Virus record (IMG/VR): IMGVR_UViG_3300002835_000047
Location: 53,887-117,886 of that record
Reading direction: 5' to 3' (one strand)
DNA: 64,000 nt
Source of the DNA: a virus
Shown here: positions 27,016-64,000 of the stretch, piece after piece
How the letters are laid out: each line of letters starts with the position of its first letter
How positions within the stretch are numbered: the stretch's first letter is position 1
Position numbers and translations under genes: made by a program
The notes under the pieces: model-generated
What the model saw: the letters and a program-made list of their open reading frames with translations, nothing else
Told to the model about the DNA's origin: nothing
The model's database searches: none

Positions 27016-27525
27016 TTAATTCCAGTCAATTTTAGGACAGTACTTGTAATAGGTTGCTTTAACCATTTCAACAATGATATTAGAACGTTTTTCTTCTTTC
27101 GGTAGATTTCTTCTTTTTCTTTCTTTTATTTTTTTTCCGAGGTAATAAATAAACGAAGAAACACCAATAATTAAACCTCCGGCCCATGCAGCAAAACCAA
27201 TCTCAATTAAACTTTTTAAAAAAGAACCTTTAACCGGTGTGTACCAAAATAACATAATGGGACTGAGAGCTGCAATTAGACATACAATTGAAGCAGAAAA
27301 AATAATCCAACAAACGAAACCAAGACCAATTCTATGACCAAGTGATTCGTTACACGAATTTTTATCTATAATAATATAAGGAAAAGAAATAATAAATAGT
27401 GGAATTACGAATACATAAGCCATTACCAATTTCCAAAAGTATGGACATAAATTGGTTGGAAGTTCACTTGTTCCGTAAAACCAACGGAAGAGTTTTGCTG
27501 AGATTGAGTTTTTGTTGAGTTTCAT
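27016..27525 (-). CDS. Membrane protein, paralog of 60911-61399
   Basis: Shares MKLN.NS.SAKL.RWFY...PTNLCPYFWKLV and NIIVEMVKA.Y.KYCPKI.W. Confidence 0.8.
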   Translation of the reverse strand: MKLNKNSISAKLFRWFYGTSELPTNLCPYFWKLVMAYVFVIPLFIISFPYIIIDKNSCNESLGHRIGLGFVCWIIFSASIVCLIAALSPIMLFWYTPVKGSFLKSLIEIGFAAWAGGLIIGVSSFIYYLGKKIKERKRRNLPKEEKRSNIIVEMVKATYYKYCPKIDWN

Positions 27526-51857: not shown

Positions 51858-52259
51858 TTAAGTGCCTTCTACTATATCAGGATAATTGGTTGGTATGTTT
51901 TCACTTTTTACCTTCAGAATTCTATGTGGTGGGTAGTGTTCAAATACTTCCCCATCATTGTGTCTGTATCCGTCCTTGACAATTGCAGATGCATGTTCAC
52001 GAACTTTTTCAGCAGAATCAACTTCATATTTGAATATCCTACCATCGTCTAAATAAGTTTTTACTACATGTTTCATGGTTGATTTAAGTTTAGGGGTTGG
52101 GGGGTTTTTTTCGGCTTTGTAAAAACCAAGACCCACAACTTCTTCCCAAAGTTGAGTCATAGTTACTCTAATGGAGTCTTTTTGAGCTTGGTCTAATAAA
52201 CCAAAATCGTGCCTATATCTCATCGCCATAGAGTCAATCAGTTTGGGGTCTGGTTTCAT
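51858..52259 (-). CDS. Two-module fusion protein
   Basis: An internal leader-like linker (KNPPTPKLKST-M) precedes a second module MKHVVKTYLDDG. Confidence 0.65.
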   Translation of the reverse strand: MKPDPKLIDSMAMRYRHDFGLLDQAQKDSIRVTMTQLWEEVVGLGFYKAEKNPPTPKLKSTMKHVVKTYLDDGRIFKYEVDSAEKVREHASAIVKDGYRHNDGEVFEHYPPHRILKVKSENIPTNYPDIVEGT

Positions 52260-52504
52260 GGGTTTGGGGTTTGGTTATTTGAGGAATTAGATTCAAAGTT
52301 TTCTTGATAGTATTGTTCTGCTTGCTCTGATGCTGGCATTTCAAGACTGCTTATGATTCCTATCAAATAAGCATTAACAATTTGCTGCTTTTCAGCCTTT
52401 AATGCCTGCTCAAAATACCCATGGAATTGAGCGACACCCAAGATGTCAATATGATACTCGTGATTATACAGGTTGTCAATTAGCGTTTGTACTGGGGTTT
52501 TCAT
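52256..52504 (-). CDS. Hypothetical protein (EKQQIVNAY...AEQYY.E.F type)
   Basis: ORF track. Confidence 0.7.
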   Translation of the reverse strand: MKTPVQTLIDNLYNHEYHIDILGVAQFHGYFEQALKAEKQQIVNAYLIGIISSLEMPASEQAEQYYQENFESNSSNNQTPNP

Positions 52505-53818: not shown

Positions 53819-54088
53819 TTAAAATTTTGATTGTGATAAATTTAATTCTATTGCTTCTTTTGGGTGTTCTTCAATCCATCTATGGCAATTTCTACACACA
53901 GAAAGCCACGTGGAAGTATCATTATGATACTTACCACGTCCTTTCATGTGATGTATTTCAGTTGATTTTAAAAAACAGTTATAAATTTTAGCTTGACACA
54001 TTGGATAAGTATCCAAATGTATCTTTCTTAACTTTGAATACTCAGAGTTAAGTTTAACCATTTTTTTTGAAAATTTATTTATTTTCAA
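53819..54088 (-). CDS. Small HNH endonuclease
   Basis: C..., EIHHMKGRG, WLSVCRNCHRWIEEHP. Confidence 0.85.
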   Translation of the reverse strand: MKINKFSKKMVKLNSEYSKLRKIHLDTYPMCQAKIYNCFLKSTEIHHMKGRGKYHNDTSTWLSVCRNCHRWIEEHPKEAIELNLSQSKF

Positions 54089-58430: not shown

Positions 58431-60158
58431 TTATTTTACTTTTTTAGTTGGAATTAGAACCGTAACATCTCCCTCTTTAATTAATTCCCAATTATAGTCA
58501 CTAGTAAGGTAAAATGCACGAAGATTAGTTTTTGTACTAGAATCCCTAACTTGAATAAAATTCTTGTGTAACCCAAGCAAATCAGCTACATTAGATGAAA
58601 CAATACCATCACATCCGTGTTTGTTTACATACTTCGAGAAATCAAAGTACTTACTTTCTTCAGGGAAGCATTCAGGGTGATTTGCTTTGATTTTTGGCTT
58701 CCAATCCCAACAAGCTAAGTCGTGCAGTTCACGAATTGCTTCATCGGTGGTCGTTCCATCCAACTTAAAGTGATTAATAATGTACTCTCTTTGTTCTACA
58801 GTAGCTGCCTCATAATACTGGTTGAGTAATGTACGAGAGATTTGGATTGTTTTTACTTCAGGTTTTGACATAGGTTTTGAATTTGTGATTTGACGAAATT
58901 GTTCTAGAGTAATTTCTTTATAATCTTTATACTCATCGCGGCCCCTAAGTGCAGTGATGTCATCAGCATAATAATAACTATTATCGCTGTGATGTTTTGA
59001 AAGTAAGACTTGTCCAATTTTAGGAGTGTTGCACCTATTAGAGGTAGCAACTTTTTGTCTCCAATCTTCGAGTTCTTTTTTGTTCTCTCCGGTTATTTCA
59101 ATATACCATTTTTCTGGATGTGTGCTCATATGTTTTGTATTTGTAATCTGAAGGAATTGTTCAAGTGTGATTTTTTCATAACTAGGATGAATTTTATTAA
59201 ATTGACATTCTGTATCACACCAATAGTGACTGTCATCTTTTGGGTGATTAGAAAGAACTAAATGGGTATCAAGCAAATTTCTGCCTTTCCAACCGCTTTT
59301 TTCAACTTGTTCTAACCACCAAGGTTTTATGTCAGCATAGTTCTCGGCAGTTAATGGAATATACCATTTATCTGGATGTTTACTAATAGGATTTGTATTT
59401 GTGATTTGACGGAATTGTTCTAATGTGATTTCTTGGTAGTCATTGTAATTTCCGCTGTCCCTAACTTGTTCTGCATTACCGCAGTAATAATAAGTGCTGT
59501 CTAATTTATGCTTTGAAAGCAATGTTTGCCCTGCTCTAAGCTTGTAGTCTCGAAAAGAGGTGCATTGGTCTGACCTCCAACGGCTGAGTTCTTCTTTGTT
59601 CTCTTCCGTTACTTCAATGTACCAATCTGTGGGTAGTGTGTTCATAGAGTTTTGGGTTTGGTTTGTTGTGATTTGACGGAATTGTTCAATAGTGATTAGT
59701 TTGTATTCCGGATGTTTATATTCAATAGTCCATTTGGCATCTTTTAACCAAAAATAACTACCATCATCTGCTGGATGACTGGATAAAAGACTTGCACCAG
59801 GGATAAATTTAGAGTCCCACCGTTCAGCATCTACTGTCCTTTTACTTAACCTCCAACTATTGAGTTCTTCAATGTTTTCGTCCGTGACTGCAATATACCA
59901 ATGTTCAGGCAATGAATTTATGATTATCCTAAATTCTTCAAGTGTAATTTTTTGGTAAGATGGATGATCTGTATTTAAACTTTCTTCAGAACCACCCCAA
60001 AAATAACTATCATCATTTGGATGTTCAGATAAAAGAAGTGAACTATATGGTAATTTTGGCCAGTCTGTATATTGTGTATGCTGTTTCCACCATGCTTCTA
60101 GTTCAGCAAAATTATTTTCATTTACAGGAATATACCATTTTTGTTTATTTTTTCTCAT
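58431..60158 (-). CDS. Protein of five tandem ~85 aa repeats plus a distinct C-terminal domain
   Basis: Repeat consensus WYI.V..EN..EL..W...LLS.H..D.SY(Y/F)...Y..ITLEQFRQITN. Confidence 0.85.
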   Translation of the reverse strand: MRKNKQKWYIPVNENNFAELEAWWKQHTQYTDWPKLPYSSLLLSEHPNDDSYFWGGSEESLNTDHPSYQKITLEEFRIIINSLPEHWYIAVTDENIEELNSWRLSKRTVDAERWDSKFIPGASLLSSHPADDGSYFWLKDAKWTIEYKHPEYKLITIEQFRQITTNQTQNSMNTLPTDWYIEVTEENKEELSRWRSDQCTSFRDYKLRAGQTLLSKHKLDSTYYYCGNAEQVRDSGNYNDYQEITLEQFRQITNTNPISKHPDKWYIPLTAENYADIKPWWLEQVEKSGWKGRNLLDTHLVLSNHPKDDSHYWCDTECQFNKIHPSYEKITLEQFLQITNTKHMSTHPEKWYIEITGENKKELEDWRQKVATSNRCNTPKIGQVLLSKHHSDNSYYYADDITALRGRDEYKDYKEITLEQFRQITNSKPMSKPEVKTIQISRTLLNQYYEAATVEQREYIINHFKLDGTTTDEAIRELHDLACWDWKPKIKANHPECFPEESKYFDFSKYVNKHGCDGIVSSNVADLLGLHKNFIQVRDSSTKTNLRAFYLTSDYNWELIKEGDVTVLIPTKKVK

Positions 60159-60191: not shown

Positions 60192-60265
60192 TACTCCCGA
60201 CAGGGTTTGAACCTGTGACCCCCAGATTATGAGTCTGACGCTCTGACCGGCTGAGCTACGAGAGT
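60192..60265 (-). tRNA. tRNA with CAT anticodon (elongator Met or Ile2)
   Basis: Reverse complement ACTCTCG TA GCTC AGCCGGTCA GAGC G TCAGA CT-CAT-AA TCTGG GGGTC ACAGG TTCAAAC CCTGT CGGGAGT A. Confidence 0.93.
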
Positions 60266-60273
60266 ATATTTAG

Positions 60274-60372
60274 TAATCAGAACAGGACTCGAACCTGTAT
60301 GGACACATTTTATAGTTGTTTAAGTCCAGAGCAACATAACACTCATGCGTTTACCAATTTCGCCATCTGATT
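60274..60372 (-). ncRNA. tRNA-like element A (99 nt): acceptor, D and T arms with a non-canonical insert
   Basis: AATCAGA TG GCG AAATTGGTAAA CGC [insert] ACAGG TTCGAGT CCTGT TCTGATT A. Confidence 0.85.
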
Positions 60373-60374
60373 GA

Positions 60375-60474
60375 TGCTTCTCTGTTCACACCGACCCTGT
60401 GGGTCTACAGTGACTGGTTGTTTTCATTAATAGTCTACCAGAGAAGCACTTGTTTTGTACTTGAACTATTAATG
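60375..60474 (-). ncRNA. Structured trailer with interleaved 10 bp stems (pseudoknot topology)
   Basis: 60425-60434 pairs with 60465-60474; 60375-60384 pairs with 60439-60448; internal GACCC/GGGTC hairpin. Confidence 0.6.
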
Positions 60475-60480
60475 ACCGGG

Positions 60481-60626
60481 TAGTCAGGACAGGACTCGAA
60501 CCTGTATGAAATCATCTTTGGGTACATAAATGTATTTCTACATTCAAGCTGACTTCTCACTTTGTTAGCGTCTACCATATCAAGCACATACTATTACTCT
60601 TTGTACTATCATTCCGCCACCTGACT
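60481..60626 (-). ncRNA. tRNA-like element B (146 nt), with inserts in both the D-loop and the anticodon position
   Basis: AGTCAGG TG GCG GAATG[~33 nt]GGTAGA CGC [~60 nt] ACAGG TTCGAGT CCTGT CCTGACT A. Confidence 0.85.
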
Positions 60627-60765
60627 ATTTTTTATTTTTTATGTATTTAACAACACCCAAACACTTGATTACATAAAATTCTACTAGCAACCATCTTTTT
60701 AGCTTAACCCACCAAGGGTCTTTTTCCATCTTATCCAGTATTCTCTGAAATGTTTTACTTCTCAT
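60625..60765 (-). CDS. 46 aa passenger protein (MRSKTFQRIL...)
   Basis: ATG at 60765 behind an A-rich leader; the longer annotated ORF (to 60843) reads through element C. Confidence 0.65.
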   Translation of the reverse strand: MRSKTFQRILDKMEKDPWWVKLKRWLLVEFYVIKCLGVVKYIKNKK

Positions 60766-60779
60766 ATTTATATTTTTTG

Positions 60780-60902
60780 TAGTCAGGACAGGATTCGAAC
60801 CTGTACGTTGGGGGACTTCTCTACGGGTGTAATTTTTACACATACCAACACCGTTTTCTTATTTCAGATAATCCTTGCGTTTTCCTGAAACGCCACCTGA
60901 CT
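60780..60902 (-). ncRNA. tRNA-like element C (123 nt)
   Basis: AGTCAGG TG GCG TTTCAGGAAAA CGC [~70 nt] ACAGG TTCGAAT CCTGT CCTGACT A. Confidence 0.85.
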
Positions 60903-60910
60903 ATTTGTTT

Positions 60911-61399
60911 TTATTTCCAATTGATTTTAGGACAGTATTTGTGATACTTTGCTTTCACCATCTCAACGATGATGTTGTCTGTCTTTTCATCATCGCTCTT
61001 CTTTGATTCTAAGTATTTTACTGTTGCAAAGATACCCCAAATAATGCCAACTAGGATAAGTGAAGCCCAACAAATAAGACCGACTGATATCATTATCCAA
61101 AGTAATGAACTCTTGTTAGGGATGTAAAAGAAAAGACCCAATGTTGAAATCATGCAAATAACACCAGCGATAAGGCACCAATAAGCAGTTGATGTTCCGA
61201 GCATATCACTGTATGTATCCCGACGCCTACGTTTGTAGTTGATGATTTCATAGGGCAGGGTACAAATTGCAAACAAAGGTGAAAGAATCACCGCAGTAAC
61301 CAGTTTCCAAAAGTAAGGACACAGGTTGGTTGGCATTGTGTTGGTTTTATAGAACCAACGATAGAGTTTTGCCGAGAGTGAGTTTTGGTTTAGTTTCAT
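60911..61399 (-). CDS. Membrane protein, paralog of 27016-27525
   Basis: Shared N- and C-terminal motifs. Confidence 0.8.
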   Translation of the reverse strand: MKLNQNSLSAKLYRWFYKTNTMPTNLCPYFWKLVTAVILSPLFAICTLPYEIINYKRRRRDTYSDMLGTSTAYWCLIAGVICMISTLGLFFYIPNKSSLLWIMISVGLICWASLILVGIIWGIFATVKYLESKKSDDEKTDNIIVEMVKAKYHKYCPKINWK

Positions 61400-61430
61400 T
61401 TGTTTTGGTTTAATTTGTTTTGGTTTGATT

Positions 61431-61451
61431 TGCAGTCAGGACAGGGATCGA
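61431..61451 (-). repeat. Half tRNA-like element D (3' half from the T-loop: TCGATCCCTGT CCTGACT GCA)
   Basis: Starts immediately after the TAA stop of 61452-61658. Confidence 0.8.
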
Positions 61452-61658
61452 TTAACTTTTTACGTAATTCATCATTTCTACCATTTTCTGAATCAACAAT
61501 TCCATTTCATCTTTGTTAAGATACAACTTACCATTTAATGTTTTATCATCCAACTCTTTTGTTTCAACTATGATGCCATCAAACTCATCTGTCGGATAAA
61601 TGCTTACGTTTTGTTCTTCAGTTGCAATAACTGTTTGGTGCCAAACTTTGTTTTTCAT
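61452..61658 (-). CDS. 68 aa passenger protein
   Basis: A-rich leader directly after element E. Confidence 0.7.
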   Translation of the reverse strand: MKNKVWHQTVIATEEQNVSIYPTDEFDGIIVETKELDDKTLNGKLYLNKDEMELLIQKMVEMMNYVKS

Positions 61659-61686
61659 TTGTTTTGTTTTTAGTTGATTTGATTTG

Positions 61687-61807
61687 CAGTCAGGACAGGA
61701 TTCGAACCTGTACGAGTAGTTACCTTGTTGTATCTAAGTGTGTCAGCTACTCTAGGACCACCTCATTAAAGAAACTCTTAGCGTCTAACCAATTCCGCCA
61801 CCTGACT
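61687..61807 (-). ncRNA. tRNA-like element E (121 nt)
   Basis: AGTCAGG TG GCG GAATTGGTTAGA CGC [~68 nt] ACAGG TTCGAAT CCTGT CCTGACT G. Confidence 0.85.
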
Positions 61808-61814
61808 ATATTAT

Positions 61815-61925
61815 TTACATTTCTAAATCAAAAACATATGCCACAATAATATAGGTGATAAGAAACATGCCTATAATTGATAATGTAATTGGTCTAAGAA
61901 TTTTTATACTTACTATTTTTTCCAT
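61815..61925 (-). CDS. 36 aa single-TM passenger peptide (not in ORF track)
   Basis: MEKIVSIKILRPITLSIIGMFLITYIIVAYVFDLEM; A-rich leader after element F. Confidence 0.55.
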   Translation of the reverse strand: MEKIVSIKILRPITLSIIGMFLITYIIVAYVFDLEM

Positions 61926-61941
61926 TTTATTTTTTGTTTAG

Positions 61942-62029
61942 CAGTCAGGACAGGACTCGAACCTGTGTTCAGGGACTTAAAGTAAGTAACCCTCTAAGTT
62001 TGAATGGCTGTCAATTTCGCCACCTGACT
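61942..62029 (-). ncRNA. tRNA-like element F (88 nt)
   Basis: AGTCAGG T GGC GAAATTGACA GCC [long hairpin ACTTAGAG/CTTTAAGT] ACAGG TTCGAGT CCTGT CCTGACT G. Confidence 0.85.
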
Positions 62030-62093
62030 ATTTGTAATTTTGGCTTTTCATTTAGTATCCACAGAGCCCAAATTACTAAAATGAACTGTGCTG

Positions 62094-62214
62094 TAGTCAG
62101 GGCAGGACTCGAACCTGCAATAGTACCATACTTGCTTCGGATGCCTCCTACAACAACGGATTCGAACCGTATCTCCCCATGCCTGAGGCGCTTTACCACT
62201 TTCGCCACCTGACT
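62094..62214 (-). ncRNA. tRNA-like element G (121 nt) with a nested second T-arm
   Basis: AGTCAGG TG GCG AAAGTGGTAAAG CGC [..ACGG TTCGAAT CCGT..] GCAGG TTCGAGT CCTGC CCTGACT A. Confidence 0.85.
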
Positions 62215-62215
62215 A

Positions 62216-62600
62216 TGTTGAGGATGAGAAATCCTCTGTGTTGTTAACGTTAAAATTTGTTACTCCTACATTCCTTTATCAAGGGAACAATACAATGTCT
62301 AAAAACAACCACAGTGCTACGTTTCAAGTGGCTTGTTAAGCCTTCGTAGGTACAATAAGGTGATCAACCCTCGTAAATACCCTTCATGCACTGCAGTTGT
62401 TCTAGACAAAGTATAGCACTAAGTTGTAACTGGTTCTGCGTTAAATCCCCTATTTAACTCCAGCAAAGGAGATTACAACTGCTTACCTCATATTAATACC
62501 ATTTGCACTCAGCTGTGCGGTCAGATTGTTATAGTAATAACAGAGAACTAGTAAGTTTTCATGCTAAAAGCATACTTTAACCAGTATGCCAGTGGTGTAC
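62216..62600 (-). ncRNA. Candidate large structured non-coding RNA (~390 nt)
   Basis: No ORF of 60 aa or more; many 6-8 bp inverted repeats (see findings). Strand inferred from context. Confidence 0.5.
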
Positions 62601-62606
62601 TAATTC

Positions 62607-63751: not shown

Positions 63752-64000
63752 TAATAGTATAAAGAAAAAAAGTAAGAGTTTATGATATTTCTACCAACCG
63801 CCACTCTAAAGGACTGATTCTAATGTTTTAAGTCTAATAATCAGTTAAATTTGGACTATCCCTCTGCACTCAGTTGTAATAGGTTTAAACTAGTAATTAC
63901 TAACACATAGGAATGCCCGCTAGGACATTAAGAAGATTTATTTGCTAACTTCTCAACTCTATATGTTTCATTACTCTATTACAACTGCTCACCCTTGGGA

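Follow-up and report, generated by a model that had tools for sequence, protein, structure and literature searches.

We analysed a 64,000-nt stretch of viral DNA (the window), which is the right-hand 64 kb of the 117,886-bp IMG/VR record IMGVR_UViG_3300002835_000047 (positions 53,887 to 117,886), and found on its minus strand, from 62214 to 60192, an array in which small genes alternate with tRNA-like elements that we call shells. Each shell combines a constant tRNA-like frame with a variable cargo. The comparisons described below showed, at the level of sequence, a frame that is under selection, carries tRNA-type flanks, lies tight against open reading frames (ORFs) in operons and marks points of exchange. 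The explanation to which we give somewhat more credence than doubt is that small accessory genes are interleaved here with six virus-restricted, tRNA-Leu-derived RNAs, which would be excised by the host and are exchanged at their constant ends.

Six shells are derived from tRNA-Leu and lack an anticodon arm

Read along the minus strand, the array consists of shell G, a spacer, shell F, ORF36, shell E, ORF68, a partial shell named half-D, ORF162, shell C, ORF46, shell B, a pseudoknot spacer, shell A, a tRNA-Met gene and the gene for a 575-aa protein. The T-arm motif CAGGTTCGARTCCTG (15 nt, at most two mismatches) was present seven times in the window, always on the minus strand between 60201 and 62117 (0.04 copies expected by chance), and the 5' motif AGTCAGGTGGCG six times against 0.62 expected. 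All six complete shells formed a 7-bp acceptor stem and a T arm in the unconstrained minimum-free-energy fold, with a 5-bp T stem and a UUCRANU loop in each of them. The frame comprises the acceptor AGUCAGG/CCUGACU, U8, a Leu-type D arm, the T arm ACAGG-UUCGARU-CCUGU and an A73-C74 trailer. Its acceptor and T arm were found exactly in G, F, E, C and B and as a compensated variant in shell A (60274..60372, minus strand; acceptor AAUCAGA/UCUGAUU), while the discriminator was A73 in four of the six and G73 in F and E. The shells are tRNA-Leu derivatives without an anticodon arm.

Against the Rfam tRNA model (RF00005, gathering cut-off 29 bits), shells A (44.2 bits), E (61687..61807, minus strand; 34.6 bits), G (62094..62214, minus strand; 33.3 bits) and C (60780..60902, minus strand; 32.4 bits) passed, F (61942..62029, minus strand) fell below the cut-off with 27.6 bits, and B (60481..60626, minus strand) gave no match, its structure being that of the minimum-free-energy fold. 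The individual shells depart from a standard tRNA in different ways: G carries as its cargo a second T-arm-like hairpin nested within it, the D loop of F has no GG, a 6-bp hairpin replaces the D arm of C, B holds a 33-nt D-loop insert in addition to its cargo, and A has an "anticodon loop" of 15 nt. None of the six contains a readable anticodon arm (7-nt loop with U33), and alignment with Infernal placed 12-43 surplus nucleotides in their anticodon loop. ARAGORN, which did not call shell A, reported only a tRNA-Met(CAT) and a distant tRNA-Arg in the window, so that the genome possesses two decoders and six non-decoders. The tRNA-Met gene (60192..60265, minus strand), 8 nt past shell A, was recognised as genuine both by ARAGORN and by Rfam (68 bits). 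A scan of the other Rfam families up to E 10 returned tRNA and chance matches only (YrlA, 17 bits; tmRNA, 6.8 bits). Half-D (61433..61451, minus strand) is a 3' remnant of a shell, made of part of the T loop and the 3' strand of the acceptor, fused to the stop codon of ORF68; it is listed under repeat families D1 and D2.

The shell family appears almost confined to viral sequence

The 23-nt shell 3' end was found in at least 120 viral contigs of IMG/VR, with sizes of 4-270 kb. Among 185,579 species genomes the shell pattern occurred in 20 contigs, all from metagenome-assembled genomes, many of them assigned to Bacteroidota and many of freshwater origin, and in none of these species genomes was it found as a tRNA of an isolate. 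No full shell match was obtained in 50,697 phage records. Taken together, these searches suggest a family that is almost confined to viral sequence. The literature searched contained nothing specific on it or on tRNA punctuation in phages.

Among 221 distinct shells, position 73 was A in 89%, followed by C and then A or T, and the nucleotide at position -1 was T in about 85%. A D stem was present in 85%, usually with GG in the loop, and showed the compensatory variants GCG/CGC, GUG/CAC and GCU/AGC; compensatory variants were found in the acceptor stem across the family as well. The cargos of these shells fell into 188 unrelated clusters. Sister shells contained compensated cargo hairpins, and entire cargos were 94-100% identical between contigs that were otherwise unrelated, indicating that selection acts on the cargo too. 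When ARAGORN was run in its intron mode, tRNAs were called in 99 of 139 shells, but the anticodons were arbitrary and many of them began with A; the interpretation as intron-containing decoders was rejected.

No recurring protein partner was found near shells in the viral loci fetched for comparison (labelled L and a number). The commonest neighbour, present in 28 of about 140 loci and often in tandem, was a protein of about 75 aa with motifs like QTAVEWL ... EQAKEMEKEQI ... YYNETF, a copy of which lies in the window at 52256-52504 on the minus strand.

Constant shell ends coincide with the borders of exchanged modules

The original prediction had proposed that the shared 3' ends of about 25 bp serve as homology for swapping passenger genes between phages. 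Over all loci, the constant shell parts contained five times as many ends of homology tracts as expected (84 of 1,279 ends, p 2e-32), and such ends were rare inside shell interiors. ORF68 illustrates this behaviour: in L068 and L149 a differently loaded shell stands before it and the same half shell after it, L036 and L106 have a full shell directly 3' of an ORF68 with a longer C-terminus, and in L061 no shell touches it. The match of L149 to the window (88.9% identity) begins in the T arm of E, at 61712, and ends at 60903, 1 nt before shell C; there it gives way to another gene, and shell C is absent. Relatives of ORF162 with 78-80% identity were found in five contigs (L148-L152) with differing neighbours. 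In L148 and L150-L152 a 72-aa ORF precedes ORF162, in place of ORF68 and half-D, and the sequence upstream of the shells in L150-L152 includes pieces of the 575-aa repeat protein, whereas in the window this protein is encoded downstream of them. For ORF46, homology with L060 sets in at the T arm of the shell before it and runs as far as the D arm of the shell after it, and both cargos differ. A further relative, seen in contigs from RNA libraries, carries ORF162 behind a complete T arm with unrelated flanks on both sides.

The shells themselves were found to move in the same manner. Shell G has a 95%-identical copy in L135 and homology stops at the shell ends; a 94%-identical copy of shell E in L142 lies between unrelated flanks. 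Shell B is a mosaic, since over 70 nt its cargo shows 100% identity with that of a shell in L017 without the D-loop insert, and its 33-nt D-loop insert recurs in a shell of L034 that carries another cargo. Cargo was swapped at least as often as ORFs.

These comparisons bear out the proposed role of shared shell ends, the same passengers standing beside different shells and the breakpoints piling up in the constant parts; the proposal was too narrow only in naming the 3' ends, because the constant 5' ends serve as junctions too. The order of passengers varies between relatives, with differences bounded by shells, which is contrary to a fixed arrangement. The data support, by comparison between loci, constant shell ends as points of exchange and a cassette reading in which the modules are a shell plus its cargo, a cargo alone, or a leader plus its ORF. 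Tyrosine integrase (PF00589) was absent from the 117,886-bp record in a search whose control was positive in 14 of 14 genomes, serine recombinases not being part of the search. The lack of a tyrosine integrase makes homologous exchange the likelier route, and recombination on identities of about 25 nt is the most likely mechanism. Half-D resembles the outcome of a deletion by which the end of ORF68 was joined to the T loop of a once complete shell, and not the scar of an attachment (att) site; L036 and L106 have a full shell at this place and a longer ORF68 C-terminus.

Small ORFs lie tight against the shells

Four passenger ORFs, all on the minus strand, occupy the array. ORF68 (61452..61658) has homologues in L068, L149, L036, L106 and L061, ORF46 (60625..60765) in L060 and L056, and in both of them substitutions are concentrated at third codon positions. 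ORF162 (60911..61399) encodes a membrane protein that matches phrog_944 (E 1.5e-20). Judged by their homologues and substitution patterns, these three are conserved coding genes. A paralogue of ORF162 (169 aa) is encoded 34 kb away in the same genome, at 27016-27525 of the window on the minus strand.

The alternation of shells and passengers claimed in the original prediction was confirmed, every element being at its place on the minus strand, but several details had to be amended. The 36-aa transmembrane peptide is indeed present as a hydrophobic ORF (ORF36, 61815..61925), although without a homologue in the fetched loci to back its status as a gene, and it is kept as a candidate listed only as an ORF. 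Passengers hug the shells, as had been stated: the stop of ORF36 lies 7 nt before E, that of ORF68 abuts half-D (0 nt), that of ORF162 lies 8 nt before C, and the TAG stop of ORF46 overlaps B, being formed by T(-1) and the bases A1 and G2 of that shell; stops thus fall -2 to 8 nt before the next element. The leaders measure 14-33 nt, and not 8-30 nt as first given (F to ORF36, 16 nt; E to ORF68, 28 nt; half-D to ORF162, 33 nt; C to ORF46, 14 nt; tRNA-Met to the 575-aa gene, 33 nt). They contain no G and have no predicted structure. A spacer described as structured, the ORF-free 64 nt between G and F (62030..62093, minus strand), was no more stable than its shuffled versions (z -0.5). Conversely, the pseudoknot placed between B and A is borne out by the sequence of this ORF-free spacer of 108 nt (60373..60480, minus strand), in which two interleaved, perfect 10-bp helices can form an H-type pseudoknot, the nested part having a z of -1.8. 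A 42-nt portion of the same spacer is 95% identical to a stretch of L017 located outside any shell.

We then compared the surroundings of 225 shells with those of 239 canonical tRNAs from the same loci and of random sites. An ATG-initiated ORF of at least 25 aa started 10-29 nt after 31% of the shells, compared with 13% of the tRNAs and 12% of the random sites, and one ended within 40 nt before 46% of the shells, compared with 21% and 14%. This excess (Fisher p 1e-5 to 1e-25), two to three times the level at canonical tRNAs, indicates that the alternation of shells and small ORFs is a property of the family and extends beyond the window. Neighbouring shells were on the same strand in 77 of 77 pairs, and 87% of shells were co-oriented with the nearest large ORF, which argues against repeats inserting at random.

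Shells carry the flanking signals of genuine tRNAs

RNase P needs no more of its substrate than the stack of acceptor and T helices and favours a U at -1, and tRNA precursors without an encoded CCA are trimmed past position 73 and then repaired. In their predicted folds, the shells would have the minimal shape of an RNase P substrate. The canonical tRNAs of the compared loci (L007-L146) had T(-1) in 70% and C74 in 92% of cases. The U(-1) and C74 flanks common to shells and genuine tRNAs are the best indirect sign that shells would enter the tRNA-maturation pathway, and they make punctuation by RNase P and RNase Z at the shells plausible. In the genuine tRNAs of these phages C74 is followed by AA or TA, not CA, an unusual partial-CCA trailer.

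From 64000 down to about 15450, nearly every large ORF is on the minus strand. The array sits 1.8-3.8 kb from the start of this leftward gene block, and from position in the block alone we infer that the array genes are early. Sigma-70 and Bacteroidota-type promoter motifs and terminator motifs were at chance level within the array, in a scan that covered signals of host type. In the mechanism that we propose, the leftward block would be transcribed as one unit and host RNase P, together with the tRNA 3'-end machinery, would excise every shell as if it were a tRNA. Stable, tRNA-framed small RNAs would result, in which unrelated folded cargo replaces the anticodon and variable arms. As an unavoidable by-product, the transcript would be cut between cistrons, and the downstream pieces would begin with a G-free, unstructured leader of 14-33 nt.

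Several observations weigh against this mechanism, at least in its simple form. The 221 shells were gathered by an exact 3' motif, so that the conservation of their 3' ends is partly built in. The TAG of ORF46 consists of T(-1) and the first two bases of B, an overlap that recurs in the ORF46 homologues of two other loci, and a cut by RNase P at B would remove this stop; 13 of 225 shells overlap an upstream ORF in this way. Half-D is unable to fold, so ORF68 and ORF162 would remain joined. For these two reasons, the idea that every gene is released as a leader-ready mRNA is too simple. Moreover, no shells accompany the genes that lie upstream of 62607 or downstream of 60158, and excisable elements do not flank all cistrons. 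The tRNA elbow may not form in F, which has no D-loop GG, or in C, whose D arm is rebuilt. In bacteria, such cuts would leave the upstream mRNA with no 3' hairpin to protect it and would give the downstream mRNA a 5' monophosphate; each of these usually shortens the life of an mRNA. The RNA evidence consists of assembled metatranscriptome contigs, which cannot show ends, strand or level; they span most of the stretch, and their gaps and differences in depth are not evidence. We therefore did not count as evidence that in one run a contig over 62270-63607 had about ten times the depth of the array contigs. One RNA contig stops at 62216, immediately before shell G, a single case and a faint hint at most. 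Contig joints between shells had sides of only 20-42 nt and were discarded as repeat artefacts. That translation and excision compete at shell borders, with shells acting as timing devices, is speculation.

Other explanations of the array

If shells were purpose-built punctuation, that is mainly RNase P/Z cut signals that free the mRNA of each early gene, with incidental cargo, one would expect what is seen at their borders: ORFs abut shells two to three times more often than they abut true tRNAs, the leaders of 14-33 nt are G-free and unstructured, and ORF-free spacers, structured ones included, also occur between shells, as anything between two shells would be released. We nonetheless find this rather unlikely, since the shell interior is selected as well (cargo conserved at 94-100% across unrelated contigs, compensatory changes in sister shells) and the D arm is retained although a bare acceptor/T minihelix would suffice for cutting; the split TAG of ORF46 and the ORF68-ORF162 junction left uncut at half-D do not fit it either. 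A different use of the same frame would be mimicry of leucine-accepting tRNAs, charged by the host leucyl-tRNA synthetase (LeuRS) or binding another tRNA-binding factor or a tRNA-cutting defence nuclease, as a means of host takeover or as decoys, with the position of the ORFs being secondary. Bacterial LeuRS relies for recognition on A73 and on the elbow, neither the anticodon nor the long arm being read, and the Leu-type D arm (GGCGGAAUUGGUAGACGC), the presence of A73 in 89% of shells and a near-invariant acceptor that suggests sequence-specific recognition would all suit such a role. G73 in F and E and the want of a normal D loop in F and C do not; no partner enzyme recurs near shells, where the protein of about 75 aa is the commonest neighbour, and the excess of abutting ORFs would be left unexplained. 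We consider mimicry improbable.

Two further possibilities assign the shells no role as RNA. The 3' part of the shell could be a DNA promoter for a phage RNA polymerase, each cassette being its own transcription unit, in keeping with a conserved block of about 25 bp located 14-33 nt upstream of many start codons and with the fact that promoters of host type were not seen in the array. This is very unlikely, given that conservation extends to the 5' half, whose pairing with the 3' half is kept by compensatory changes, that the family is spread over contigs of 4-270 kb, and that the flanking signals are common to genuine tRNAs of the same loci. We attach equally little probability to decaying tRNA pseudogenes or selfish tRNA-derived repeats without RNA function, and to integron-like site-specific cassettes with half-D as an att scar. 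The many copies, whose ends resemble inverted repeats, the half copy broken in the T loop, the direct repeats around ORF68 and the identical shells in unrelated flanks would agree with such elements. They are opposed by the uniform strand of the 77 neighbour pairs and the 87% co-orientation with genes, by stems kept through covariation and by the lack of a tyrosine integrase in a record that CheckV rates complete, and deletion explains half-D, for which L036 and L106 show a full shell at the same place and a longer ORF68 C-terminus. Returning to shells as host-excised RNAs, one may tentatively go further and see them as dual-purpose: host-processed RNA frames would both stabilise small RNAs and cut the early transcript, while their DNA ends would provide portable homology, making the array an integrase-free, integron-like platform on which freshwater Bacteroidota phages reshuffle mini-genes and RNA modules. 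We hold this extended form to be possible but doubtful.

Comparison with known systems

The T4 tRNA cluster encodes species 1 and 2 (rnaC, rnaD), small stable RNAs of unknown function that are co-transcribed with tRNAs and matured by tRNA-processing enzymes. Unlike the shell family, these are two single genes, without a constant frame and variable cargo; they are set apart here by description alone. The closest known arrangement is the tRNA region of phage T5 (NC_005859), with RNA1, RNA2 and RNA3 annotated as "tRNA-like stable RNA with unknown functions". As in the window, tRNA and tRNA-like genes of T5 alternate with small hypothetical ORFs on one strand; the gaps range from a few to about 25 nt, some features overlap, and the tRNA-like stable RNAs are 125-144 nt long. 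In contrast to our array, the T5 genes are mostly genuine decoders with differing acceptor stems and there are several annotated internal promoters, whereas here six of seven elements are non-decoding and use one acceptor/D/T frame that is common to more than 120 viral contigs with swapped cargo.

In mitochondrial tRNA punctuation, tRNA-shaped elements flank the cistrons of a polycistronic unit (PMC8601606). Excision in mitochondria leaves an incomplete stop codon, to which the stop of ORF46, overlapping the start of the following element, may be compared. Unlike in mitochondria, however, the punctuating elements here are not functional tRNAs, not all cistrons are flanked and processing is predicted. 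We know of no case of stop-codon completion by polyadenylation in Bacteroidota phages. Should the dual-purpose reading be true, bacterial viruses would possess in the array a counterpart of mitochondrial tRNA punctuation, including a stop codon shared with the next element.

Lak megaphages contain over-long tRNA genes with conserved "introns", one insert being tRNA-like (PMC6784885) and resembling in this the cargo of shell G. Those Lak genes were interpreted as decoders interrupted by introns, with anticodons that could be assigned, and neither arrays alternating with ORFs nor one common frame were reported for them (PMC6784885). In engineered tRNA scaffolds, an RNA of interest replaces the anticodon arm so that it is processed and stabilised by the cell (PMC3753655, PMC3401473). 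No natural counterpart of this laboratory device was found in the literature searched. As in integron arrays, promoterless small genes alternate with a recurring element that serves as the site of cassette exchange; unlike in integrons, there is no tyrosine integrase, the recurring element is an RNA gene whose fold is under selection, and exchange looks homologous and not site-specific.

What appears to be new, as far as sequence can tell, is one constant frame across hundreds of phage sequences with swappable cargo, its dominance in the row (six of seven elements) and its ends as module borders. If shells are excised as predicted, host tRNA maturation would be used as a general RNA-processing and stabilising system, a natural "tRNA scaffold", and the array would provide the first example in a phage of tRNA-style punctuation from non-decoding elements. 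Constant ends acting as module boundaries would supply a concrete explanation of how small early genes and small RNAs turn over in mosaic fashion in uncultured phages, and hundreds of conserved cargo RNAs would become available for study.

Source phage and surroundings of the array

The record, which is complete according to CheckV, represents a 118-kb phage that is a distant relative of crAss-like phages. Its family-B DNA polymerase has as best match that of the crAss-like Cellulophaga phage phi14:2 (31% identity), and it contains giant ORFs of 3,124 and 1,883 aa. The sequencing runs that carry the record are lake and freshwater metagenomes, and the host is probably a freshwater Bacteroidota bacterium. 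In a DNA search against cultured phages, tRNA-Met was the sole match, and no related viral loci were found with the 147-aa and 575-aa proteins as queries.

Upstream, the array is headed by an ORF-free region of 392 nt (62215..62606, minus strand) that is predicted to be structured (fold z -4.25 relative to shuffles) and has a 6-bp hairpin 5 nt upstream of shell G. Its last 100 nt or so, including this hairpin, are kept in L036 immediately upstream of a shell, and RNA-library contigs cover the region in four runs. Upstream of the array, the minus strand contains two copies of a long-range inverted repeat (GCAGTTGTAAT ... TTACAACT.AGTGC), at 63870-63990 and 62415-62485. RNA-library contigs contain a joint that skips 63882-63975, between the arms of the GCAGTTGTAAT/TTACAACT inverted repeat.

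The first large gene past the array encodes the 575-aa repeat protein (58431..60158, minus strand), which matched no family above its curated cut-off. RNA-library contigs omit 267 nt within this gene (59423-59691, minus strand), an apparent variation in the copy number of its repeats of about 85 aa.

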